From IMG/VR virus record IMGVR_UViG_3300021085_002380: DNA of 64,000 bases. One strand, given 5' to 3'. The notes beneath the pieces were generated by a model that was not told where the DNA came from, did no database searches, and saw nothing but the letters and a program-made list of their open reading frames with translations. Positions 28,339 to 63,968 of the stretch are shown here, in pieces (position 1 is the first letter of the stretch; each line of letters starts with the position of its first letter). Made by a program: the position numbers and the translations under genes. The stretch is from a virus.

Positions 28339-28842
28339 ATGGCGAAACCTCGCAAACGGAACTACGTCAACAACAAAGACCTGCTGGAAGCTTTAATCAA
28401 TTACAAGAAAGCTTGCCGCGAAGCAGAAGACCAAGGCGAGATAACGCCTCGAGTGCCTGACTACATAGGTAAATGCATTTATCAAATTGCTACAAGACTC
28501 GCAACAAAACCAAACTTTAGTGGGTATTCCTACAAAGAAGATATGATATCAGACGGAATTGAAAACTGTCTTCAGTATATCAATAACTTTAATCCTGAAA
28601 AATCTCAAAACCCATTTGCATACTTTACTCAAATTATTTGGTACGCGTTCCTACGACGTATTCAAAAGGAAAAGAAGCAAATGTATATCCGGTTTAAATC
28701 TTCGCAAAGTATGATTGCAACTGGCGGAACTTATGCCGGTGATGAAGTAGTTCTTAATCTCAATACTAATGCTGATTATATGAATGCATTTGTTCAAGAC
28801 TTTGAGGACAAACTAACTAGAGATAAAGAGAAAAAGAAATAA
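28339..28842 (+). CDS. 55: Late transcription sigma factor gp55
   Basis: YVNNKDL, PNFSGYSYKEDMISDGIENC, NPFAYFTQI. Confidence 0.95.
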   Translation: MAKPRKRNYVNNKDLLEALINYKKACREAEDQGEITPRVPDYIGKCIYQIATRLATKPNFSGYSYKEDMISDGIENCLQYINNFNPEKSQNPFAYFTQIIWYAFLRRIQKEKKQMYIRFKSSQSMIATGGTYAGDEVVLNLNTNADYMNAFVQDFEDKLTRDKEKKK

Positions 28843-34914: not shown

Positions 34915-35097
34915 ATGGCACCGAACCATAAATTAGCAACGCTCGAAGCATCATGGCGTTATCAGAACACTGTCGTTGAATGCCTAGAGGCTGAAAATGC
35001 ACCAGACAAATATGTTCAAAAAGCTAAGAAAGAAAGACTACGTATTAAAGATAAGATCGCAATTTTAAAAAGTGAAGGACTAAAAGATAATGACTGA
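34915..35097 (+). CDS. Small protein (DUF465/YdcH-like)
   Basis: KKERLRIKDKI motif; AGGAG RBS. Confidence 0.5.
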   Translation: MAPNHKLATLEASWRYQNTVVECLEAENAPDKYVQKAKKERLRIKDKIAILKSEGLKDND

Positions 35098-35500
35098 TAT
35101 GGCAAACGATATGAATACAATGCATGATAAATTTGGAGTACATGATTGGTTTCAAAAGAATCGTGGTGACAAAGATCTGATGAGCAAATATCTGATGTTT
35201 CGGATGCTTATGATTGGCGAAGAATACCAAGAAACATTATCGGCTATTAATAATTCAGACGCCGAAGAAGTTGTCGATGGCTTGATTGATATGTGTGTAT
35301 TCGCATTAGGTACACTTGATGTATTTGGAGTTGATGCTAATAAAGCATGGAATGCTATTTACGAAGCTAATATGGCAAAGGAACCTGGTGTAAAACCTGG
35401 ACGTCCTAATCGTTTTGGTTTGCCTGATTTGTTAAAACCATCAGGTTGGACACCACCTTCACACGAAGGTAATCACGGTGATTTAAATAAAGCTTTGTAA
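35090..35500 (+). CDS. MazG/PRA-PH-like NTP pyrophosphohydrolase
   Basis: EEYQE, EEVVDGLID, NMAK, LLKP.GW..P. Confidence 0.8.
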   Translation: MTDMANDMNTMHDKFGVHDWFQKNRGDKDLMSKYLMFRMLMIGEEYQETLSAINNSDAEEVVDGLIDMCVFALGTLDVFGVDANKAWNAIYEANMAKEPGVKPGRPNRFGLPDLLKPSGWTPPSHEGNHGDLNKAL

Positions 35501-47425: not shown

Positions 47426-47469
47426 ATCTTTTATAAATAAACCTATAAGTATTCATAAGAGGGAAGATT

Positions 47470-48525
47470 ATGAAAGGGTTTAAGACACACCTTACTGAGG
47501 CCATTAAAGCTGAAGACTTTGAGGCTGCAATTGTAATTGGTTGGCACGAAATTACTGGCCAACAGATTAGCCCTGAAGCAGCAGGTATATCACAAAAGGT
47601 ATATGATAGTATTATGGCTCAACCGCAATATGTTGATGCTGGTAAAAAGATTGCACAATCAATTAAATCTCATTTTAAACTCGGCGACAAAGTAAAAGCT
47701 GAGCAATACGGTCGTGCAAAGTCAAGCCTTACTTCATTTTGGAGTGGACACGGCGCAACCGATACAACACCAAAGACAGATATCTTAATTGGTGATAAAA
47801 GATTATCGCTGAAAATTGGTATGGCCCAACTTATGTCAGGTGGTAAAGCAGAGTCAACTGCAACTTTCTATGCTGCAATGGAAAAAGCAAACGTTTCCAA
47901 ATCCCCACAACTTAAAAAAGTATTAGGTATCTTTGATGACTTTGTGACTGCACAACTTGCGCCGTCGCAACTAAGACCTATTATTAAAGCAGGTAATAAC
48001 CCGGTAGTTAATCGAGGTGAAGCTGCTCATAAACAAATCATGGCTGAACTTGGTAAACTTTTTGAAGAAAACGAAAAATTCAAAATTGAGTTTGCTCGTG
48101 AAGCAATGTCAGGTTTTGTAAAATACGGAGAGACAAGTAATTCCGCTGCTGAGTTTATGGTTGTCTCGGATCATAACGGATCTTCAACTAAAATCACTTC
48201 AGTATATGACGACGCGTATTGTAAAAAGATTGCTGATGCAATGAAACTGCAGGCTCGGTTTAAAACATCGTCTCGTAAACTAAAAGGTGTAAAGACTGGA
48301 GAGTATAACTTTTGGTCTGTTATTTCCCTTATCGTTGATGCAAAACTCAAGGAAGAAGTTGAGCTTGAAGAAGGTATGTTTAGAAATGTTATTAGCAGGT
48401 TAAAAGGTAAAATTGGTCAAGGTATCAAAAAGGCTAGATCGTTTATTTCAGGTAAGGTATCTAATGTAATGTCATTCTTCCAGGCTGACCCAGATATTAA
48501 GGTTAATACTAAAATTAATTTCTGA
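47470..48525 (+). CDS. Late PD-(D/E)XK-like protein with capsid-targeting-like N-terminus
   Basis: TATAAATA 47432; MKGFKTHLTEA; PKTDILIGDKRLSLK. Confidence 0.6.
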   Translation: MKGFKTHLTEAIKAEDFEAAIVIGWHEITGQQISPEAAGISQKVYDSIMAQPQYVDAGKKIAQSIKSHFKLGDKVKAEQYGRAKSSLTSFWSGHGATDTTPKTDILIGDKRLSLKIGMAQLMSGGKAESTATFYAAMEKANVSKSPQLKKVLGIFDDFVTAQLAPSQLRPIIKAGNNPVVNRGEAAHKQIMAELGKLFEENEKFKIEFAREAMSGFVKYGETSNSAAEFMVVSDHNGSSTKITSVYDDAYCKKIADAMKLQARFKTSSRKLKGVKTGEYNFWSVISLIVDAKLKEEVELEEGMFRNVISRLKGKIGQGIKKARSFISGKVSNVMSFFQADPDIKVNTKINF

Positions 48526-49298
48526 TGGCACAGCTAGGTTTTGTATACGAGCGATATGCATCTGACGCATTAAAGAAATATGATATAGTACCGGCGACAT
48601 TTACACCAGCAGGAGCAGGAGCAGACCAACCGGATTTGATAATTAAAAAGCCAGGACCTCGAGCATTAGGACAGAGTGGTTGTGAATTAAAGATATCGCC
48701 AGCGGCATCAGGTGGATCTTTGGTTTTAAAATATATAAATAGTAAATGGCAATTTGATGAAATACCAGTAAAGGATGTTGAAAAAAGATTTATAAAAGCA
48801 GTTGCAATCCGTGCAAAGGCACTAGACAAAATCAACAAAGCATGGAACGGTATTGAGTCATATAAGTTTGCTACTTCTGCATTATTGACAAACGAAAAGA
48901 AAATATTAACAAAAAGAGAACAATACGCAAAAGAACTGAAAAGGTTTCCTGATGTAAAAGGTGAAATATCAGCTACTGAAATAGAAGGATATTATAACAC
49001 AAAGGACACTTATTATATTAATGTTGGTACACACGGCTTGTATTTGCTAGGACAGAAAAATCCGTTAAATCTAAAAGGACTAAGAACCTTTGGTAAATTA
49101 GCAACAGCAGGTTATAGGGCAAGAGTACAAAACAAAGGTGGCGGAAATTATCAGTTTACATTTGAGTTAACATTTGGTATAATTAAAACGAATCGGTCAG
49201 AATATAATATAGCACCAGTAACAAGTGCAAAAAACGTAACGATAAATTTAGAAGTAATGGAAAAATCTATTGCACGGTTATTTAAGGTAGAAATATGA
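48525..49298 (+). CDS. Putative PD-(D/E)XK endonuclease
   Basis: GFVYE ... QPDLII ... CELK; very basic. Confidence 0.55.
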   Translation: MAQLGFVYERYASDALKKYDIVPATFTPAGAGADQPDLIIKKPGPRALGQSGCELKISPAASGGSLVLKYINSKWQFDEIPVKDVEKRFIKAVAIRAKALDKINKAWNGIESYKFATSALLTNEKKILTKREQYAKELKRFPDVKGEISATEIEGYYNTKDTYYINVGTHGLYLLGQKNPLNLKGLRTFGKLATAGYRARVQNKGGGNYQFTFELTFGIIKTNRSEYNIAPVTSAKNVTINLEVMEKSIARLFKVEI

Positions 49299-50536
49299 AA
49301 AGTTTTAAATCGTTTATGACAGAAGATAAAAACCTTCACATGACACATGCTGAAGACGCTGTTATAGATGGCGGTATAAAAGGAACAAGAAATGTTATCA
49401 ACTATCTCCGTGACATTCGTGATATGCTTAGCGGAAGCGCTAAGTCTGCTGTTAACATAAGTGTTAAATGGGATGGCGCACCTGCAGTGTTTGCAGGAAC
49501 GGACCCGAGCGATGGAAAATTCTTTGTAGCTAAAAAAGGTGTATTTAATAAAAACCCTAAAGTTTATAAAACACATGCTGATATTGACGCAGATACTGTT
49601 GGCAAAGGTGATCTTAATTCCAAATTGAAAGTTGCCCTTGACGAGTTTTCAAAGCTCGGTATCAAAGGTGTAGTACAAGGTGATTTTTTATATGAAAGAA
49701 GTGATATTAAAGAAGAAACGATTGATGGTGAATCGCATCTTACTTTCCATCCTAATACGATTGTTTACGCGGTACCTAAAGCATCAGAACTTGGTAAAGC
49801 AATACTCGGATCCAAGGTCGGTGTGGTCTGGCATACAGTCTACCGAGGAGATGCGTTTGAATCAATGTCGGCAAGTTTTGGAGAGGAGATTGCTTCAGGC
49901 CTCAAAAAAGTAAAATCTGTCTGGTCTGTTGATGCTGTCTTTAAAGACCAATCAGGAACAGCCAATTTTACTGCAGATGAAACTGCAGAGCTTACAAGGA
50001 TACTTTCTCAAATTGGAACACTATTCCGCGTAGTTCCTAAAAAGACATTTGATGGTTTACTACCTTCAACCAATAAAGAACTCAATATGAGAGTAAATAC
50101 TTATATTAACGTTAAGGTACGTGAAGGACAACGTGTAGGTAATCCTAAAGTATTCGTAAAAGGTTTAACAAAGTATCTTAACGATTGGTACGATGGAGAA
50201 ATTGCTACAAAGAAATCACCAAAAGGTAAGGCAACTTGGGAAGCTAAAAAAGCCGACGCAATGAAGTTCTTTAAAACAAACAGGCCAAAAGATATTGAAA
50301 ATCTATTCACAATGTATAACCTAATCGTGGATGCAAAACATATGATCGTACGCAAACTTGAAAAAGTTGACGGATTAAAAACATTGCTTAAAACGAATAA
50401 AGGATTTGAAGTTACAGGACAAGAAGGTTTTGTTGCCATTGACCGTTATGGTAAGAATGCGTTAAAACTTGTTGACCGCTTACAATTTTCAGCAGCAAAC
50501 TTTTCAGACAAATACATTAAAGGATGGCAGAAGTAA
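49295..50536 (+). CDS. DUF6267-like protein, RNA-ligase-like nucleotidyltransferase fold
   Basis: KNLHMTHAED, VKWDGAPA (KxDG), QGDF, EGFV, LKLVDR; starts MKSFKSFMTE. Confidence 0.65.
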   Translation: MKSFKSFMTEDKNLHMTHAEDAVIDGGIKGTRNVINYLRDIRDMLSGSAKSAVNISVKWDGAPAVFAGTDPSDGKFFVAKKGVFNKNPKVYKTHADIDADTVGKGDLNSKLKVALDEFSKLGIKGVVQGDFLYERSDIKEETIDGESHLTFHPNTIVYAVPKASELGKAILGSKVGVVWHTVYRGDAFESMSASFGEEIASGLKKVKSVWSVDAVFKDQSGTANFTADETAELTRILSQIGTLFRVVPKKTFDGLLPSTNKELNMRVNTYINVKVREGQRVGNPKVFVKGLTKYLNDWYDGEIATKKSPKGKATWEAKKADAMKFFKTNRPKDIENLFTMYNLIVDAKHMIVRKLEKVDGLKTLLKTNKGFEVTGQEGFVAIDRYGKNALKLVDRLQFSAANFSDKYIKGWQK

Positions 50537-54716: not shown

Positions 54717-55474
54717 ACCACGAAATTGAAATTGAAAAAGACGGCGCAAAATATATTATGAAAGATCATAAGTATTATGCGTATTATCAGTTTGGATTGC
54801 AAAGGACAGGGACAACTATTATTGATAGAATGATCCGTGATAACTTTAAATTCAATAAAGCAAATGATCTTACACCGCATACAGTTAAACCACCTAACGC
54901 AGATGTATTAACGTGGAAACATGAGCTTAACGTGCCAAAACTTTTACGCCCGGGTTTACCTGTAGTTTTAAACCACAAAAACCCATATACTTGGCTTGAG
55001 TCCATGTTGTATAGAAGAGGCGCATCAAACGGCGGGTGGCAACAAACATACGGAAAAGTATACGAAACACAAAACCAATGGGAAAGAAACAAAACTAGAA
55101 TTGATGTTGATGACAACGGTACTTGCTTTCCTGACCAAATGCTAAGATGCTATAAACATTGGTTTAATACTTGGCTAAAGTATCATGACGAAAATCCTGA
55201 AACAACAATGCTTATTAAGTGGGAACATTTATTATATAAAGATTTACGTGAAGATATTTTTGACGAAATGTGGAAAAAGTTTAATTGGCCTGAATATCAA
55301 TACCCAGAATATGTTTGGGCAATGCACTCAGGCTCTTCACTACCTATGACTAAAGATCGCATAGCTTATTACGTTAAAAGCGTTCCTACACAATTGGAAC
55401 AAAGGTTTATAGATATGGTTCCTAAAATTATGGGCGAAGATCTTATGAAACGGTTGGGTTACTCAATCTTATAA
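54710..55474 (+). CDS. Sulfotransferase-like protein
   Basis: GLQRTGT, KNPYTWLES, IKWEHL, LGY tail. Confidence 0.65.
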   Translation: MLDHEIEIEKDGAKYIMKDHKYYAYYQFGLQRTGTTIIDRMIRDNFKFNKANDLTPHTVKPPNADVLTWKHELNVPKLLRPGLPVVLNHKNPYTWLESMLYRRGASNGGWQQTYGKVYETQNQWERNKTRIDVDDNGTCFPDQMLRCYKHWFNTWLKYHDENPETTMLIKWEHLLYKDLREDIFDEMWKKFNWPEYQYPEYVWAMHSGSSLPMTKDRIAYYVKSVPTQLEQRFIDMVPKIMGEDLMKRLGYSIL

Positions 55475-55506
55475 ATATTGGGAATAGTTTTTATCTTGAG
55501 GGCAAA

Positions 55507-58401
55507 ATGGCTGATAAAGAAAAAAAGAAAGACAAAAAAATAGTAGGTTATAAAGAGTTCGACTCTACTAAATACATTGATATTGAACCTACTATTGATG
55601 AAGCTAAAAAGAATGGCGGAACTGTAGTTATTGCATGGGGTCGTATGAATCCTATGTCTGCAGGTCACGAAATGCTCGTTAAGAAAGTTATTGATGTGGC
55701 TAAGACCGAAAAAGGTACTCCGCAAATTTACTTATCACATACCCAAGGAGCAAAAACTAAAACCGGCAAAGGGGCGGTTAATAAAGATCCATTATCATAT
55801 GATGATAAAATCAAATTTGCTCAAAAAGCTTTTGGTCCAATTGTTAAGAAATCTCCAGCAAAAACTATCATACAATTACTTAAACTCCTTGATAAGCAGT
55901 TTGATAGAGTTGTATTGGTAGCTGGATCTGATAGAGTCAAAGAGTTTAACAATACACTAAATAAGTACAATGGAAAAGAATATAAATTCAGTGAACTTAA
56001 AATCGTATCAGCTGGCCAAAGAGATGCGGATGCCGATGATGTATCAGGAATCTCAGGTACTAAAATGCGTGGATACGCTAAGACAGACATGAAAAAATTT
56101 ACTGCAAACTTACCGAAAAAATTAAAAGGTGACGCCAAGGAAATTGCAGCGTTAGTAAATAAGGGCACTCAAATGACAGAAGAAAACGATGTAGAAATGG
56201 ATGAAGCTCTGAATAGAGTTCAACGATTTAAAAAGGCCCGCGCTATGAGAAAGGCTCGTGCTAAAATCAAACGTGGCCAAGAACGCGCTAAGCGTAAAAA
56301 GGCTGATATGAAAAAGATTAAACAAAGAGCGCAAAAGTCTGCAAGGAATATGATTAAAGATAGACTTGCAAAACCTAAAAAGTATGCAAGCTTATCATAT
56401 GCCGAAAAAGAACGTATTGATAAACGTATGGAAAAAATTCCACCAGCAAGGATTGATAGACTTGCCCGTAAAATGATACCGATGGTTAAAAAGAAAGAAC
56501 AGGAAAGACTTAAGTCTGCGCGGTCAAAATCAGAAGAAGTTGATCTCGACGAACAGTTTACAATGTTCATGGAAAAAATGACAAAGCCACAAGATAGTGA
56601 CGTGGCAGATCGCCCAGGTTCTCAACCAAAAGGTTATTATAAAGGTGTAGATAAAGATAAGAAAGATGCTCGCGCTGCTCATTTTGAAAAAGGTGCAAAG
56701 ATGTCTGACGATAACCCTGCGGCATACAAACCAGCTCCTGGTGATAAAGAAGCAAAGACTAAAGAGTCGAAGTTTACTAAAAAAGCAAGAGCTATGGGAT
56801 TTACAGAAGATTTAGTTTGGGAAGAATTAGTTGAAGGTCTCGACGAAGGTTTGTGGGGACAGCGAATTTCAAAAAGACCGCATATGCTATATGCTGCAAA
56901 CGGAAAAGTAAAATTTGATAAACGCTTTAAAATGTATAGACCAAAAGATGTTAAAGAGTCAAACGAGTTTGTCATTGAAGACATTGCAGAACTATACGAA
57001 GCGACCGAAGGTTATATGTCTGAAGATAAAGCTGGAAAATCTTTAAAAGATAAAGCAGCGAAATCAGGTATGCCTGCCGGTATTTTACGTAAGGTTTATA
57101 ACCGTGGCGTGGCGGCATGGCGTACAGGTCACCGCCCAGGTACAACTCCTGAGCAATGGGGACATGCTCGAGTAAATTCATTTATTACAAAATCATCAGG
57201 TACATGGGGTAAGGCAGATAAAGACCTTGCTGATAAAGTTCGCAAAGAAGGAATAGAAGAAATGAATGAAGCACCTCGTCGTAAAGGCGCGCCAAAAATG
57301 AAAGGTGACTCTGTTGCAATTCAACGTGCAAAAGACGCAGAACATGCAAAGGCAATGGGGCGTTCAGTAAAAACTGGCCGCAAGTTACCTAAGAAAACAA
57401 TGACTTCAACTCAAAGATCATTAGCTTCATTACGTGGAGAAGATGTTCAAGAAGCTGCTACTCCTCAAATGAAACAGGCCGCGGCAAGTATTGAAGCATA
57501 TGCAAAAAAACATGGTGGTATTGATAAAGCAGACTTTATGAAAGCAGCAAAGATGCTATCATCTGGTAATGCTGGTACAAAATTCATTAAGTTCGTAGAC
57601 GATCTTGATACAGATCCACGTGAATGGTTAATTACTAATCTTGCTAAAACTATGGGTAAACAAACAGTTGAAAAAATGTTTAAAGTTAAAATCCGTGAAG
57701 AAGTAGAACAGCTTGATGAATTAACCGCGGCAGAAAAGAAACTTGTTAATCAAATGTATGATAAGAAAGGTAACCTTACTCCATTAGGCAAAAAGGTTAT
57801 GAACCACGGTAAAAAGCCTGGTGATAAAGGTTACGTAGAATCAAATCTTGATGAGCAAGCTATAGAGTTTTTAGAAAAGTATAAACCAGCAACACCTGAA
57901 GAAATCAAAAAGGATAAAGAACGTGAGCGTAAAGCAAGCGGCAAACAACGTCCTTCAATGAACGCTAAATCTGCCACAAAGAAAACATATGGTGGTATGA
58001 TGGGTGGTCTTAAAGCTGGTTACGGTTATGGAGAAAGCTCAAAAAAATCTGTTGATACTAAACCAACTATTGACGAAGATGAAAAAGAAAACCTAGCTAA
58101 ATATGCAGCAGCGGCAATTGCGCGTAAAAAAGAAGCGGGTGAAATGGATGATAAGCCAAAACCAAAATATAAAGACAAAGTCAAACGCAAAGAGGTTGAT
58201 GAAGCGTGTGGAGCTGGTGAGCAAGGTACTAATGAGCTTACTAAAAAATACAAAAAAGATACACCAATGGAAAGTATTCCACCTGAAGTTGTAGGGGCAG
58301 CATTAGCCGCTCCTATGGTCGCCCAAGGAGCAAAGGCTGCAGCTAAAGGCGCGTATAAAATGGCTAAAAAAATTGTGGCAAAAAAGAAAGCTAAAAAGTG
58401 A
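55507..58401 (+). CDS. Large late protein: N-terminal cytidylyltransferase-like (HxGH) domain plus many small basic modules
   Basis: TATAAATA 55470; GRMNPMSAGH, VAGSDR, SAG.RD, SGTKMR; later VYNRGVAAW..GHRPG..PEQWGHARVNSF module. Confidence 0.75.
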   Translation: MADKEKKKDKKIVGYKEFDSTKYIDIEPTIDEAKKNGGTVVIAWGRMNPMSAGHEMLVKKVIDVAKTEKGTPQIYLSHTQGAKTKTGKGAVNKDPLSYDDKIKFAQKAFGPIVKKSPAKTIIQLLKLLDKQFDRVVLVAGSDRVKEFNNTLNKYNGKEYKFSELKIVSAGQRDADADDVSGISGTKMRGYAKTDMKKFTANLPKKLKGDAKEIAALVNKGTQMTEENDVEMDEALNRVQRFKKARAMRKARAKIKRGQERAKRKKADMKKIKQRAQKSARNMIKDRLAKPKKYASLSYAEKERIDKRMEKIPPARIDRLARKMIPMVKKKEQERLKSARSKSEEVDLDEQFTMFMEKMTKPQDSDVADRPGSQPKGYYKGVDKDKKDARAAHFEKGAKMSDDNPAAYKPAPGDKEAKTKESKFTKKARAMGFTEDLVWEELVEGLDEGLWGQRISKRPHMLYAANGKVKFDKRFKMYRPKDVKESNEFVIEDIAELYEATEGYMSEDKAGKSLKDKAAKSGMPAGILRKVYNRGVAAWRTGHRPGTTPEQWGHARVNSFITKSSGTWGKADKDLADKVRKEGIEEMNEAPRRKGAPKMKGDSVAIQRAKDAEHAKAMGRSVKTGRKLPKKTMTSTQRSLASLRGEDVQEAATPQMKQAAASIEAYAKKHGGIDKADFMKAAKMLSSGNAGTKFIKFVDDLDTDPREWLITNLAKTMGKQTVEKMFKVKIREEVEQLDELTAAEKKLVNQMYDKKGNLTPLGKKVMNHGKKPGDKGYVESNLDEQAIEFLEKYKPATPEEIKKDKERERKASGKQRPSMNAKSATKKTYGGMMGGLKAGYGYGESSKKSVDTKPTIDEDEKENLAKYAAAAIARKKEAGEMDDKPKPKYKDKVKRKEVDEACGAGEQGTNELTKKYKKDTPMESIPPEVVGAALAAPMVAQGAKAAAKGAYKMAKKIVAKKKAKK

Positions 58402-58967
58402 TATCTTTTAAACAATATATTTCAGAAGACTTTTCGTCTGATTTAAATGAAAGCGCATTGACCGCACTTAGAGTTGCAACTAAAGCCCATTCAGGGCAAA
58501 CTCGCAAAAGTGGTGGTAAATACATTGAGCATCCAAAAGAAGTTGCTCGGTTCGTAAAGCAATTTAAAAAGTCAAATAATCTTTCGGCGTTAGTACAGGC
58601 AGCTTATTTGCATGATACTATTGAAGATACTGATACAACTTATGCTGATTTGGTTAAACAGTTTGGTGCTCTTGTAGCTGATATGGTTCAAGAATTAACA
58701 ACAGATAAAGCTGCATCTGATGCTATTGGTAAAGGTGAATACATTGCTGGTAAGATGGCTAAAATGTCAAGTTGGTCATTAGTTATTAAACTTGCGGATA
58801 GATTAGCAAACGTACAAGACATTGATACCCGGCCTGCAGATTTTCAAAAGAAATATGCTGCACAGACTGCGCTTGCTATTAAACGTCTTCGTAGTGATAG
58901 ATATTTGAGTAAAACACATAATAAGATTATATCGGCAATTGAGAAAAAGATTAAAGAGTATGTATAG
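58398..58967 (+). CDS. Small alarmone hydrolase (RelA/SpoT HD domain, Mesh1-like)
   Basis: AHSGQTRKSG..YIEHP, AAYLHDTIEDT, ELT.DK, IKLADRLAN; starts (M)ISFKQYISE. Confidence 0.85.
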   Translation: MISFKQYISEDFSSDLNESALTALRVATKAHSGQTRKSGGKYIEHPKEVARFVKQFKKSNNLSALVQAAYLHDTIEDTDTTYADLVKQFGALVADMVQELTTDKAASDAIGKGEYIAGKMAKMSSWSLVIKLADRLANVQDIDTRPADFQKKYAAQTALAIKRLRSDRYLSKTHNKIISAIEKKIKEYV

Positions 58968-59253
58968 TTTTAAACAATATATATCAGAAGGTCTTAAGAT
59001 CAAACTCATTAGAGGTAAGACCGAAGACGTATTAAAGATACAAGATTCTAAGGAAAAGTCTTGGGTTGAAGTGCGTGGCAAATCTAACTTTGAAACTAAG
59101 TTTGACCCAAAAGATCCTTTACACAAAGCAATTGCATCTTTACGTAAATCGGTTAATGTATCTGAACTCGTGAATGGAGAGCCTGTAGGCATTAATCCAA
59201 ACCACCCACACGGCAAAAAAGCCCTGGCAGCAATAAAGAAGTTAATGAAATGA
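58960..59253 (+). CDS. Small basic protein, capsid-targeting-like N-terminus
   Basis: MYSFKQYISEG. Confidence 0.65.
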   Translation: MYSFKQYISEGLKIKLIRGKTEDVLKIQDSKEKSWVEVRGKSNFETKFDPKDPLHKAIASLRKSVNVSELVNGEPVGINPNHPHGKKALAAIKKLMK

Positions 59254-59570
59254 AAAACTTTAAATCTTTTTTAGAATCAAAAGACGAATACGATAATGAA
59301 GGTAGTATGGCAAAAGGCCAATTAAAAACCATGATTGATGCAGCGCAACAATTGCATGATATGTTATCTGATGACGAAAACATGCCAGAGTGGGTACAAA
59401 GTAAAATCACTAAAGCTACAGATTATATTGACACTGCAAGAGATTATATGAAGTCTCAAGACGGTGATGAAGCTAGCCAACAAGAAGCGTGTTGGGATAC
59501 TCATAAGCAAGTTGGTATGAAAAAGAAGGGCAATAAGATGGTCCCTAATTGCGTTCCAAAGGAAACATAA
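59250..59570 (+). CDS. Small protein, capsid-targeting-like N-terminus
   Basis: MKNFKSFLE; EGSMAKGQL, PEWVQSKIT, CW..HKQVGMKKKG.KMVPNCVP modules. Confidence 0.7.
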   Translation: MKNFKSFLESKDEYDNEGSMAKGQLKTMIDAAQQLHDMLSDDENMPEWVQSKITKATDYIDTARDYMKSQDGDEASQQEACWDTHKQVGMKKKGNKMVPNCVPKET

Positions 59571-59572
59571 CA

Positions 59573-59800
59573 ATGAAAAGTTTTAAACAGTTTTGCGAAG
59601 GTTCAGAAACATGGGAAGCTGGTTATAAGCGCCGTGTTGTCAAAACTACTAAACCTGAGCATAAAGACGACGGAAAAAATTGGAGAATTAAAGGTAAAGA
59701 TAGACCTGAGATTTCAATTAAACTATATAAAGAAAAGCCATCACAGGCAGAATTTAATAAACAAATGCGCAGAGTCGCAGGTCACGAGTTTGGAGGATAA
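59573..59800 (+). CDS. Small basic protein, capsid-targeting-like N-terminus
   Basis: MKSFKQFCE. Confidence 0.65.
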   Translation: MKSFKQFCEGSETWEAGYKRRVVKTTKPEHKDDGKNWRIKGKDRPEISIKLYKEKPSQAEFNKQMRRVAGHEFGG

Positions 59801-59803
59801 CTG

Positions 59804-60061
59804 ATGAATAAGGGACCAAAGACAGAACAACATTTAGCAGTTATTGCCGAATGGATGAAATCTGAAAATCGAGAACAAGTTACAATACATAGCAGCAGAA
59901 AACATGGTGCTATTAAATGGTTAGAATATCATCTTGAAGATTACAGATGGAAATTTCAAAAATGGACTGATTTTCATGAACATTCCATATATTTCCAAAC
60001 AGCTCGAGATGCAGCATTATTTAGAACAAGATTTTTAGATAGTAAGGAAGACAGAGTATGA
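59804..60061 (+). CDS. Hypothetical protein
   Basis: GGAGG RBS. Confidence 0.55.
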   Translation: MNKGPKTEQHLAVIAEWMKSENREQVTIHSSRKHGAIKWLEYHLEDYRWKFQKWTDFHEHSIYFQTARDAALFRTRFLDSKEDRV

Positions 60062-60588
60062 AAACCTTTGCAAAGCATAACTTACACGAAGGTATTGCGT
60101 ATCATTTAGAAAACGACATTCCGTTAGCAGAGTGTGTATATAGACCACACAGCAAATCGTTTTACGAATTTTTTATTGAAGCGCGTAAGTTATTCAAAGA
60201 AGGAATCATAAACCCATCTAATTATTTCGATAGAGACCTATTAGAAACAGATATAGGTGAACACGATATTTACGAAGAACGGCGAGTTCCACTTGACATT
60301 CCCATGATGGAGGATGAAAAGGACGTTGAGCTCAACAAGCCACAAAGAGGTGGTCCCAAAAAGTTCTATGTGTATGTGAAAGATGGGGATAAAGTCAAAA
60401 AAGTAACCTTCGGGGATACGTCCGGTTTGGCCGTAAACTTTGATGATAAAGAGGCACGCAAGTCTTTCGCAGCTCGCCACCAATGTCATTTAAAAAACGA
60501 TAAGACTAAAGCTGGGTATTGGTCTTGCCGTTTACCTCGATATGCAAATGAATTAGGATTAAAAAATGGAGGTTCGTTCTTTTGGTAA
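60058..60588 (+). CDS. Conserved hypothetical protein (DUF6321-like C-terminus)
   Basis: KKFYVYVK, KKVTFGD, RKSFAARHQC, AGYWSC. Confidence 0.7.
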   Translation: MKTFAKHNLHEGIAYHLENDIPLAECVYRPHSKSFYEFFIEARKLFKEGIINPSNYFDRDLLETDIGEHDIYEERRVPLDIPMMEDEKDVELNKPQRGGPKKFYVYVKDGDKVKKVTFGDTSGLAVNFDDKEARKSFAARHQCHLKNDKTKAGYWSCRLPRYANELGLKNGGSFFW

Positions 60589-60857
60589 AACCATATTATG
60601 ATGAACATTTGACAGATAACCAATGGATACGAATATTTAACCCTTATAACACAACCGCTGATGATTATGTTTGGCATAGGGATAAAAACGATAGAGTATT
60701 TACAGTATTAGATGGCGATGGTTGGAAAATACAATTTGATGATGAACTGCCTACTGTTATAAATAAACGTGATACGATAGAAATACCTAAAATGGTTTAT
60801 CACAGGATAATACCTGGAAAAAGCAAATTAAGGATAATAATAAATGAAGACGTTTAA
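60582..60857 (+). CDS. Small cupin-like protein
   Basis: WHRD, GWKIQFD, IPKMVYHR. Confidence 0.6.
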   Translation: MVKPYYDEHLTDNQWIRIFNPYNTTADDYVWHRDKNDRVFTVLDGDGWKIQFDDELPTVINKRDTIEIPKMVYHRIIPGKSKLRIIINEDV

Positions 60858-61221
60858 ATCACATATGACTGAGCATGAAATGCAGCTTGCGCTCGTGTGG
60901 GAACACATGCATGAAGAAAATATCAACCCCGATGATTTAACCGAAGAAGAGTTAAATGAAATCATTGGTAAGGTGATTGGTGGAGCAGCAAAGCTCGCAG
61001 CCAAAGGTATACGCCGAGGTCTTGTTAATAAACAAGGTAATCTTAGAGTTTCTCGTGCTGGACGTAACGACGCAAGACAAGCAAAAATTGATAATATTGA
61101 AAGAAAGAAAAAAGAATTGAAACGAGCCACAGATACTCGTAAAAAGCTTCAGACTGCTAGAGCCGGTTTAAGAACTGCTCGCAAAGATTTTAGAAAAGCT
61201 AGACAACAAACTAACCCTTAA
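60844..61221 (+). CDS. Basic protein, capsid-targeting-like N-terminus
   Basis: MKTFKSHMTE, LNEI, Arg/Lys-rich C-half. Confidence 0.65.
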   Translation: MKTFKSHMTEHEMQLALVWEHMHEENINPDDLTEEELNEIIGKVIGGAAKLAAKGIRRGLVNKQGNLRVSRAGRNDARQAKIDNIERKKKELKRATDTRKKLQTARAGLRTARKDFRKARQQTNP

Positions 61222-61242: not shown

Positions 61243-61452
61243 ATGGATTTTGCATCATCATTTAAATCAAAGATCTTAGAAACTTTAGAAGATCTCGAAG
61301 AAAAGAAAATGGATCCGGTTGGACAAGCCGACGATGATATTGATAACGACGGAGACGTTGACGATTCAGACGAGTATCTTCACAAACGCCGCAAAGCTAT
61401 CAAAAAGGCTATGAAAGAAGAACAAGAAGCTCGCTTATCAGAAGATAAATAA
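61243..61452 (+). CDS. Small acidic protein
   Basis: DPVGQADDDIDNDGDVD.SD.YLH.RRKAI. Confidence 0.65.
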   Translation: MDFASSFKSKILETLEDLEEKKMDPVGQADDDIDNDGDVDDSDEYLHKRRKAIKKAMKEEQEARLSEDK

Positions 61453-62184: not shown

Positions 62185-63114
62185 ATGATCGTTGATCTAT
62201 TTTTAGTATACCAATTTATCCGCAGGCTCGCAACTCCTTTTAATAAATGGGAAGCGTTTAAGCTTGGTGTTATTGATAAAGACGGTAAAGTACTAATCAA
62301 ATCAAAAGATTTTACTAAAGCTGCTCAGCGTAAATCATGGGGAGTTTTTGATAGAATGGTAGCCAACCTTAAAAAGTTGTTAGCTAAAGTTCCTGGCGGT
62401 AGTTCTCGATTTGCATCATACGCTGCTGCGTTATTTCTCATTAAAGAATATAAACATTTTACTGATGAAACTACTCTTACAGAAGAATTAACTGATAAAC
62501 AATTAGATGAATCAATACAATTATTTTATAGTAGATATACTCATTATACCACACTTGCAGAAGATGTCAATAGTTTAAACGAAAAGGCTGAACTTTTTTT
62601 AGAAAAGCTAAAAGCATCTGATGATATGGGCGATTGGATTGACGACTTTTACAAATCAGACGCACCACAGTTTAAAGGCAAGTCAAAAGAAAAACGCCGT
62701 AAAATGGCAATTGCTGCTAAGCTTGCAGTTGACGAGTCATTAGAAGAAGCCGCTGTTCCACGTTGGAAACGAGCAGGTACTGATGGCGAAATAGAAGCTA
62801 CTATCGGTGGTAAAAAATACAAAATAGAAAAAGCTTTAGATAGTAACGAACGCCATAAAGGCGAATGGAAAGTTATGGTTTGGGATAAACGTGACTGGGA
62901 GTGGGAGACAACCGAATATGGCAAAGCAAACGCTAAAGCTTGGATCATGGATAGGTTAAAAGAAGATACACCGGTTAATAACGTTGGTGATGGAAATATT
63001 GCAGGAATGGATGGAACTGCAATGTCAAAAGCAGCTCAAAAGAAATGGACATCCAAGAATAAAACTAAAAAGCGTAAAACACTGAGAAATATTATTAATG
63101 GAGAAACCTTATGA
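62185..63114 (+). CDS. Conserved modular late protein
   Basis: TPF..WEAFKLGVID.DG; SDAPQFKGKSKEKR..MAIAA; PVNNVG.G.IAG. Confidence 0.7.
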   Translation: MIVDLFLVYQFIRRLATPFNKWEAFKLGVIDKDGKVLIKSKDFTKAAQRKSWGVFDRMVANLKKLLAKVPGGSSRFASYAAALFLIKEYKHFTDETTLTEELTDKQLDESIQLFYSRYTHYTTLAEDVNSLNEKAELFLEKLKASDDMGDWIDDFYKSDAPQFKGKSKEKRRKMAIAAKLAVDESLEEAAVPRWKRAGTDGEIEATIGGKKYKIEKALDSNERHKGEWKVMVWDKRDWEWETTEYGKANAKAWIMDRLKEDTPVNNVGDGNIAGMDGTAMSKAAQKKWTSKNKTKKRKTLRNIINGETL

Positions 63115-63968
63115 TTACATTAGAACAATTTAGCGCAATGATCCCAAAAAATAAGGACGCTGAGTCTTGGTACGATGCCGCGGTTCCTATGTTTGAAAAA
63201 TACGAAATTAATACAACAAACCGGTTAGCCGGTTTCATGGCTCAATGCGCGCATGAGTCTTTAGACTTTACAAGACTTGAAGAAAACCTTAACTATTCAG
63301 AAAAAGCGTTAAACGGAGTGTTTGGTCGTTATTTCGGAAAGGGTAAAAGAAATGCTAAAGAATACGCTCGCAAACCTGAAAAAATTGCAAACTATGTTTA
63401 TCAAGATGAATACCGCAGCAAACGAGGCGCTATGGGCAACACCACTGCCGGTGATGGGTGGAGATTTAGGGGCCGTGGCATTAAGCAACTTACAGGTAGA
63501 AACAATTATACAGCGTTTGGAAAGTCAGTCGGAATGTCAGCGGAAGAAGCAGCAGACTACGTTGCAACCGAACGAGGAGCTTTAGAGTCAGCCTGCTGGT
63601 TCTGGGCAACAAATAAACTTGACAAGTGGGCTGATAAAGGCGACATTAAAGGATTGACAAAAAAGATAAATGGTGGTACAATTGGTTTAGAAGATCGTAC
63701 ACGTCGTTGGGAAGAAGCATTAGCTATTCTTGGTGGTAAAGTACCCGCGCCAAAAGCAGCAAAGAAATCTGCACCAGCAAAATCTCGTACTTTACGCAAA
63801 GGTATGAAAGGTGACGATGTCGCTAAAATGCAAAAAGCTTTAGGTATTACAGCGGACGGAGACTTTGGTTTCGGAACGCAAACATCAGTTAAAAAATGGC
63901 AAAAACTTAACGGTTTAGTGGCAGACGGCATTGTAGGCCCAGCAACACAAGCCAAAATGTTTAAATAA
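63111..63968 (+). CDS. Endolysin: GH19 catalytic domain plus peptidoglycan-binding domain
   Basis: FMAQCAHES, EENLNYS, FRGRGIKQLTGRNNY, INGG..GLEDR; ADGDFG...ADGIVGPAT. Confidence 0.92.
   Translation: MITLEQFSAMIPKNKDAESWYDAAVPMFEKYEINTTNRLAGFMAQCAHESLDFTRLEENLNYSEKALNGVFGRYFGKGKRNAKEYARKPEKIANYVYQDEYRSKRGAMGNTTAGDGWRFRGRGIKQLTGRNNYTAFGKSVGMSAEEAADYVATERGALESACWFWATNKLDKWADKGDIKGLTKKINGGTIGLEDRTRRWEEALAILGGKVPAPKAAKKSAPAKSRTLRKGMKGDDVAKMQKALGITADGDFGFGTQTSVKKWQKLNGLVADGIVGPATQAKMFK

Follow-up and report, generated by a model that had tools for sequence, protein, structure and literature searches.

Interference by marine phages with the starvation alarm of their hosts has long been suspected. 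The usual candidate, cyanophage MazG, reportedly does not hydrolyse magic-spot nucleotides (PMC6850273). Dedicated phage alarmone hydrolases are nevertheless known: those of Salmonella phage SSU5 (PaSpo) and of PVP-SE1 (PbcSpo), each a single HD_4 domain of about 170-190 residues with no synthetase, neutralise all tested toxins of the toxic small alarmone synthetase (toxSAS) class (Jimmy et al. 2020, PMC7229694). A second body of work concerns phage T4, whose proteins IPI, IPII, IPIII and Alt carry a leader, roughly 10 residues long (19 in IPI), in which positions 4 and 7 are aromatic, position 8 is aliphatic and Glu stands at the cut. Mutagenesis assigns residues 4 and 7 of this leader to targeting and residues 8 and 10 to processing; gp21, the prohead protease, cuts after L/I-x-E (PMC9026906), and Alt illustrates that an enzyme can be delivered by the head-loading route (PMC5512222). 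Both themes meet in a 64,000-nucleotide stretch of IMG/VR virus record IMGVR_UViG_3300021085_002380 (the whole stretch is hereafter the window). Its plus-strand gene at 58398..58967, 189 amino acids (aa) plus stop as defined by the open reading frame (ORF) call and by profile and structure searches, almost certainly encodes an intact, stand-alone small alarmone hydrolase (SAH) of the RelA/SpoT HD type, and it opens with a leader that follows the T4 rules. As among the T4 internal proteins, one leader precedes unrelated small basic passengers encoded by predicted late genes, and a gp21-type protease is found in related contigs. Given that the enzyme stands behind the type of leader that T4 uses for head loading, it is probably injected ready-made into the next host.

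The hydrolase, its leader and its cut-type sites

The first-pass annotation had read a complete RelA/SpoT-type HD motif set, without a synthetase domain, into this gene, and both parts of that reading held up. The protein scores 58.9 bits against Pfam HD_4 (PF13328; cut-off 27.2) and matches the HD family too, its PHROGs label is metal-dependent phosphohydrolase, and within the NCBIfam spoT_relA profile (TIGR00691) it matches just positions 1-137 of 687. Human MESH1 (2e-15) and Rel hydrolase domains are its closest solved relatives by sequence. The catalytic residues His31, Gln34, Arg36, His45, His72-Asp73, Glu76-Asp77, Asp134 and Asn138, invariant in an alignment of 61 sequences, line up with the MESH1 and Rel motifs H-x-x-Q-x-R, H-P, H-D, E-D and D-R-x-x-N. 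A first fold predicted from the single sequence was poor (predicted local distance difference test, pLDDT, 58), and a model based on the alignment of 61 relatives was used instead (mean pLDDT 90.4); its top Foldseek matches are MESH1 and the Pseudomonas aeruginosa SAH, at template modelling (TM) scores of 0.78-0.83, with an all-helical HD fold that begins at about residue 18, residues 1-20 having low pLDDT. Eleven full-length bacterial RelA/SpoT homologue (RSH) proteins match the window solely through their hydrolase part (residues about 1-190), and their synthetase part finds no match in the window or in a related 182-kb contig, G001. Because the hydrolase set is complete and no synthetase was found, the gene is best regarded as a stand-alone hydrolase and not as the partner of a toxin. 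For the same want of a synthetase partner in the window and in the 182-kb relative, an antitoxin SAH of a toxSAS operon (type IV, of the ATfaRel type) was rejected, the neighbouring genes belonging to other families. A Mn2+-type 3'-pyrophosphohydrolase activity is presumed from family membership.

The reading frame opens with a GTG, which shares bases with the TGA that ends the upstream 964-aa ORF (GTGA). Its first in-frame ATG does not come until residue 96, so a non-ATG start is needed, and relative L010 has ATG at the position of this GTG with the same overlap with the upstream stop. A start at the in-frame TTG (Leu21) is possible but unlikely, given the ATG of L010 at the GTG site and the conservation of residues 1-18 as peptide. 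Read-through fusion with the 964-aa ORF was rejected, as the two lie in different frames and a stop stands two codons 5' of the GTG in the hydrolase frame.

Ahead of the fold, the leader (residues 1-10) and the L-N-E|S (residues 16-19) to which the first-pass annotation had drawn attention are both present as described. The leader (58398..58427, plus strand) ends in I-S-E and is capsid-targeting-like by the T4 rules, Phe4, Tyr7, Ile8 and Glu10 satisfying all four T4-mapped positions; it lies in the low-pLDDT part of the model. In T4 itself (NC_000866), ipII and ipIII have one common decapeptide, and ipI, with a leader of 19 residues, begins almost as several leaders of the window do; the T4 capsid-targeting sequence is also quoted in a preprint. 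The pattern stands at the N-termini of eight of the 114 ORFs called in the window, where 0.012 would be expected from its rate inside proteins, and at six N-termini in the independent contig G001, where 0.014 would be expected, in two clusters as in the window; it was fitted after the data had been seen, and the excess is several hundred-fold and is replicated in G001. Of the earlier claim that the enzyme carries a packaging tag, the T4-type leader is thus borne out by these eight N-termini, while packaging itself is something we infer. Beyond the leader the eight window ORFs are unrelated to one another (blastp E above 0.2), and the same is true of the six in G001. A generic late-gene N-terminus was considered and rejected because other late genes behind promoter boxes, such as the tail-tube-like gene and gp32, lack the leader. 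Nearly all of the approximately 70 IMG/VR orthologues with a readable N-terminus retain it, and between relatives its codons change synonymously under a constant peptide pattern; the hydrolase of Vibrio phage pv27 is untagged and begins directly at the fold. Complex prediction for the leader region of the G001 orthologue with two copies of the G001 scaffold scored 0.06, which gives no answer either way. That the leader works as a head-loading signal is a good deal likelier than the contrary.

Between leader and fold lies a variable linker (residues 11-18; 58428..58451, plus strand) that ends in L-N-E before Ser19 and thereby forms a second cut-type site, 13 residues ahead of the first catalytic His and at the edge of the fold. 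An aliphatic residue at P3 together with Glu at P1 occupies this site in 109 of the 116 short relatives and in 101 of the 104 long ones, and in none of the 11 bacterial RSH proteins. Among representatives taken at 50% identity the site is limited to the nearest matches, and it is nearly absent from untagged hydrolases below about 48% identity. A cut after Glu18 is predicted to release a basic enzyme of about 19 kDa that starts at the HD fold (residues 19-189; 58452..58964, plus strand; 171 residues, pI 9.7) with its catalytic set complete, and the internal proteins of T4 are likewise small and basic (PMC9026906). Leader and cut site have both been kept in a clade whose members have drifted apart to about 50% identity, which speaks for selection on loading and processing and against a relic.

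Late genes, neighbours and chained relatives

The window is that of a marine T4-like myovirus, to judge from its genes: its DNA polymerase and that of cyanophage S-RIM8 are 44% identical, it encodes a single-strand DNA binding protein of the gp32 type, and a late sigma factor of the gp55 type (28339..28842, plus strand; phrog_234, 7.5e-61) provides the context of T4-type late transcription. A consensus match to the T4-type late promoter box, TATAAATA, lies at 55470..55477 on the plus strand, 37 nucleotides (nt) ahead of the gene that opens the hydrolase-containing operon. Eight of the 11 plus-strand copies of the box lie at most 90 nt 5' of plus-strand starts, one of which belongs to the tail-tube-like gene, and no terminator-like site is predicted on the plus strand from the box at 55470 to the hydrolase gene. 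The hydrolase would accordingly be transcribed as part of a T4-type late operon.

Relatives extend this picture to the head genes. A protease of the Peptidase_S77 (gp21) family is present in all three of the related long contigs searched. The head module of G001 runs in the order portal, 559-aa ORF, protease, scaffold and major capsid protein, and the last of these carries an L-Q-E|A at the point corresponding to the cleavage site of T4 gp23. The 559-aa ORF (L092:3779-5458, equivalent to G001 163779-165458, minus strand), located between portal and prohead protease in the place of the T4 prohead core genes, begins with the leader type of the window in a form almost identical to the T4 leader. 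It contains modules of the window's 964-aa protein and of ORF 61243, and has no match in cultured phages.

In the relatives the hydrolase is always found amid pieces of the 964-aa protein and modules that bear the leader, with all of them on the same strand and their order shuffled, and in many cases such units are joined. A single protein of 1,200 residues in relative L061 unites the cytidylyltransferase part with the Lys/Arg-rich stretch, DUF5824, the Cys-rich module seen in ORF 59250, the HD domain and the module found at the C-terminus of ORF 60058. When longer proteins were searched, 518 matched at E below 1e-10; among the best 120 of these, 108 are phage-type chains of 332-1,821 residues, and the remaining 12 comprise a cellular protein and long RSH enzymes of bacteria. 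The partners of the HD domain in chains are cytidylyltransferase, DUF5824, DUF6267, NT5C nucleotidase, kinase, deaminase, and ParB or GNAT domains, and inside the fused chains an aliphatic-x-Glu junction still precedes the HD domain. Since the same passenger has either a leader of its own or cut-type joints within a chain, processing by a prohead protease would most simply explain both the tagged and the chained forms. As a separate observation, many long chains of more distant relatives begin with a second leader type, approximately M-R/K-x-x-E/D-F/L-aliphatic-x-E, which suggests a second loading signal in related, larger phages.

Within the window, the gene immediately upstream of the hydrolase encodes the 964-aa basic protein (55507..58401, plus strand; pI 9.8), with a cytidylyltransferase-like N-terminus, a Lys/Arg-rich stretch and DUF5824 (phrog_3041, 8.8e-84; PF19141). 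It has no leader of its own, and its stop overlaps the hydrolase start. It may itself be head cargo, its modules recurring in the leader-bearing G001 ORF and in the HD fusions. The other seven leader-bearing ORFs also lie on the plus strand. In the first cluster are a 351-aa ORF of no known family (47470..48525), 38 nt after a late box at 47432, and a 413-aa DUF6267 protein (49295..50536; PF19782, 3e-108); a single profile, phrog_455, unites the DUF6267 family with part of the 964-aa protein. Downstream of the hydrolase follow a 97-aa ORF (58960..59253) whose leader matches that of the hydrolase at residues 3-10, a 106-aa ORF (59250..59570) with the C-terminal Cys-rich module that L061 has in fused form upstream of the HD domain, a 75-aa ORF with the leader pattern (59573..59800), a 176-aa ORF (60058..60588) whose C-terminal module L061 has in fused form downstream of that domain, and a 125-aa ORF (60844..61221), 86 nt after a late box at 60758. 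The Cys-rich module that ends ORF 59250 is encoded by 46 bp (59503-59548, plus strand) that are 95.7% identical to cyanophages S-IOM18 and S-8S29, and this is the one common stretch that megablast of the region returned against cultured phages. A D-x-D-x-D-G-type motif, acidic and rich in Asp, with a basic helix after it (phrog_4359, phrog_22379), recurs at 61243-61452 (plus strand), in small ORFs and in the core-position protein of G001, and may bind calcium. A putative endolysin with glycoside hydrolase 19-like and peptidoglycan-binding domains (63111-63968, plus strand) ends the late block. Elsewhere, the phage that carries the hydrolase also has a gene for a MazG-like nucleotide pyrophosphohydrolase (35090-35500, plus strand; phrog_671, 1.8e-21).

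Proposed delivery and the alternatives

From the computed enzyme family, intact active site, leader, leader portability, clade-specific site and late-operon placement, a course of packaging, cleavage and injection, with a substrate and a purpose, can be proposed. Late in infection the hydrolase would be made as a precursor with a T4-type capsid-targeting leader, which would take it into the core of the assembling prohead. A gp21-type prohead protease would then trim it after Glu10, Glu18 or both, and the basic enzyme of about 19 kDa would remain inside the head alongside the DNA. When the next cell is infected, it would enter with the DNA, ahead of phage gene expression, and remove (p)ppGpp and/or (p)ppApp, possibly also the pyrophosphate of 3'-pyrophosphorylated tRNA. 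The outcome would be relief of stringent repression in a starved host or the disarming of toxic alarmone-synthetase defences. The complete chain from loading and trimming to injection and removal of alarmone or tRNA pyrophosphate has, in our judgement, slightly better than even prospects, and action of the enzyme at entry stands at about even. The case for packaging is strengthened beyond the leader by the clade-specific fold-edge site, the late operon, the gp21-type protease in relatives, the leader gene in core position and the chain junctions. A broader possibility, somewhat less probable, is that the hydrolase belongs, as one unit, to a combinatorial system of head cargo in marine T4-like phages, whose units are either leader-tagged or chained. 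The cargo pool of such a system might comprise alarmone hydrolase, cytidylyltransferase, DUF6267, DUF5824, nucleotidase, kinase and deaminase, in chains of up to about 1,800 residues. Equally tentatively, prohead-protease-type cuts might fall between the units, all of which would be loaded and delivered as ready-made enzymes at entry.

Several points weigh against the proposed course. This genome's own protease and head genes fall beyond the window, such genes having been observed in relatives only. The tagged clade is known from metagenomes only, and the best match in a cultured phage is 45% identical and untagged. The hydrolase starts with GTG and lacks a clear Shine-Dalgarno sequence, and the late promoter is a consensus match only. 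Relief of the stringent response and pre-emption of toxSAS defence are not separable by sequence, nor does sequence settle the substrate among ppGpp, ppApp, tRNA pyrophosphate and reduced nicotinamide adenine dinucleotide phosphate (NADPH). Finally, an enzyme made late would already be there in the producing cell and could act in it, so that injection is not required for its action.

This last point is the root of the strongest rival, in which the hydrolase acts chiefly in the producing cell, late in infection, for example by reversing the pyrophosphorylation of alarmones or tRNA by a capsid-triggered toxSAS of the CapRel type. The leader would then merely clear surplus enzyme into heads or survive as a relic of cassette exchange, and injection would play no role. 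The late operon would indeed place the precursor in the cytoplasm while capsid protein is being made; CapRel is known to be activated by a major capsid protein and to be neutralised by a co-expressed phage hydrolase (PMC9712102, PMC7229694). Yet leader and fold-boundary cut site alike have persisted through divergence to about 50% identity, and phages possess untagged hydrolases for purely cytoplasmic use. We therefore consider this rival unlikely as a sufficient account, with the further consideration that action in the producing cell is compatible with injection as well. An ordinary cytoplasmic enzyme is also what would be expected if the decapeptide were only a gene-start cassette, whether a recombination joint or a translation-start context. 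The leader genes fall in two clusters whose order is shuffled between relatives, as a recombination joint would give, and the coding DNA is A+T-rich (TTTAAA). A cassette would nevertheless not lead one to expect synonymous codon variation under a constant peptide pattern, agreement with the functionally mapped positions of the T4 leader, a second, clade-specific aliphatic-x-Glu site outside the common decapeptide, a leader on the prohead-core-position gene of G001, or chains that retain the junction without any gene start, and this explanation is accordingly improbable.

A different kind of objection grants packaging and injection but assigns the enzyme a substrate other than an alarmone, be it NADPH, 3'-phosphoadenosine 5'-phosphosulfate (PAPS), 3'-pyrophosphorylated tRNA only, or another nucleotide signal of defence. 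Among solved structures the closest are complexes of MESH1 with NADPH and with PAPS, the fused relatives pair the HD domain with nucleotidase, kinase, deaminase and cytidylyltransferase, and substrate preference is unpredictable at such similarity according to the authors of the work on phage Adele (PMC12846349). The full Rel/MESH1 catalytic set is retained, however, and all characterised members among the structural matches listed hydrolyse (p)ppGpp or (p)ppApp. A non-alarmone substrate thus seems rather less plausible than late action in the producing cell, though less far-fetched than a gene-start cassette. Delivery of an alarmone hydrolase in the phage head, as set out above, is consequently the reading retained here.

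Comparison with described systems

Phage alarmone hydrolases are known, as is the T4 leader on diverse passengers; their combination was not found in the literature searched. A full-text search of a limited collection returned no packaged or injected alarmone hydrolase and no T4-type leaders in marine T4-like phages, and the cyanophage comparison of Sullivan et al. 2010 (PMC3037559) leaves internal proteins and prohead core proteins unmentioned. For the hydrolases of SSU5 and PVP-SE1 neither leader nor virion carriage is reported, unlike the gene in the window, and homologues in cultured phages are at most about 45% identical. Human MESH1 (HDDC3) and the P. aeruginosa SAH have the same catalytic residues, but they are cellular, 26-29% identical and without a leader. 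The jumbo-phage HD-alarmone phosphodiesterase (Iyer et al. 2021, PMC7824862) is another HD hydrolase predicted to counter alarmone immunity, according to the available part of that source, which, in contrast to what is seen here, mentions no leader or packaging.

Multi-enzyme cargo that is predicted or thought to travel in the head and to enter the cell with the DNA has been described in the form of polyvalent proteins of phages and conjugative elements (Iyer et al. 2017, PMC5512222) and of (p)ppApp synthetase toxins fused to MuF (PMC12226406). Such cargo carries RelA/SpoT synthetase, whereas the gene in the window encodes a hydrolase with a leader of its own. Polyvalent proteins are defined by two to fifteen effector domains; the hydrolase has a single domain, although its chained relatives are multi-domain. 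The junctions of these chains resemble prohead-protease sites and not sites that an internal metallopeptidase domain would cut.

Uncultured marine T4-like phages widely encode a true RelA/SpoT-type hydrolase, which is apparently built for delivery with the DNA; should this be correct, the phage could erase (p)ppGpp, (p)ppApp or tRNA pyrophosphate before reading its own genes, a concrete example of a counter-measure loaded in advance against the stringent response or toxSAS defences. Fusions to the T4 leader reach 20-200 copies per head (PMC9026906), and by our own estimate that number in a very small marine cell would correspond to about micromolar concentration. If the combinatorial system also exists, phages would have in it an equivalent of the effector repertoires of secretion systems, directed at the nucleotide signalling of hosts that are starved or defended. 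The closest precedent remains T4, from which the window departs in its passenger, an alarmone hydrolase, which is not described in the T4 literature searched, and in scale: eight or more genes are tagged in this one window, against three or four in T4, and passengers are also strung into chains. These differences point to a repertoire of head-delivered enzymes in marine T4-like phages that may be much larger than that of T4.

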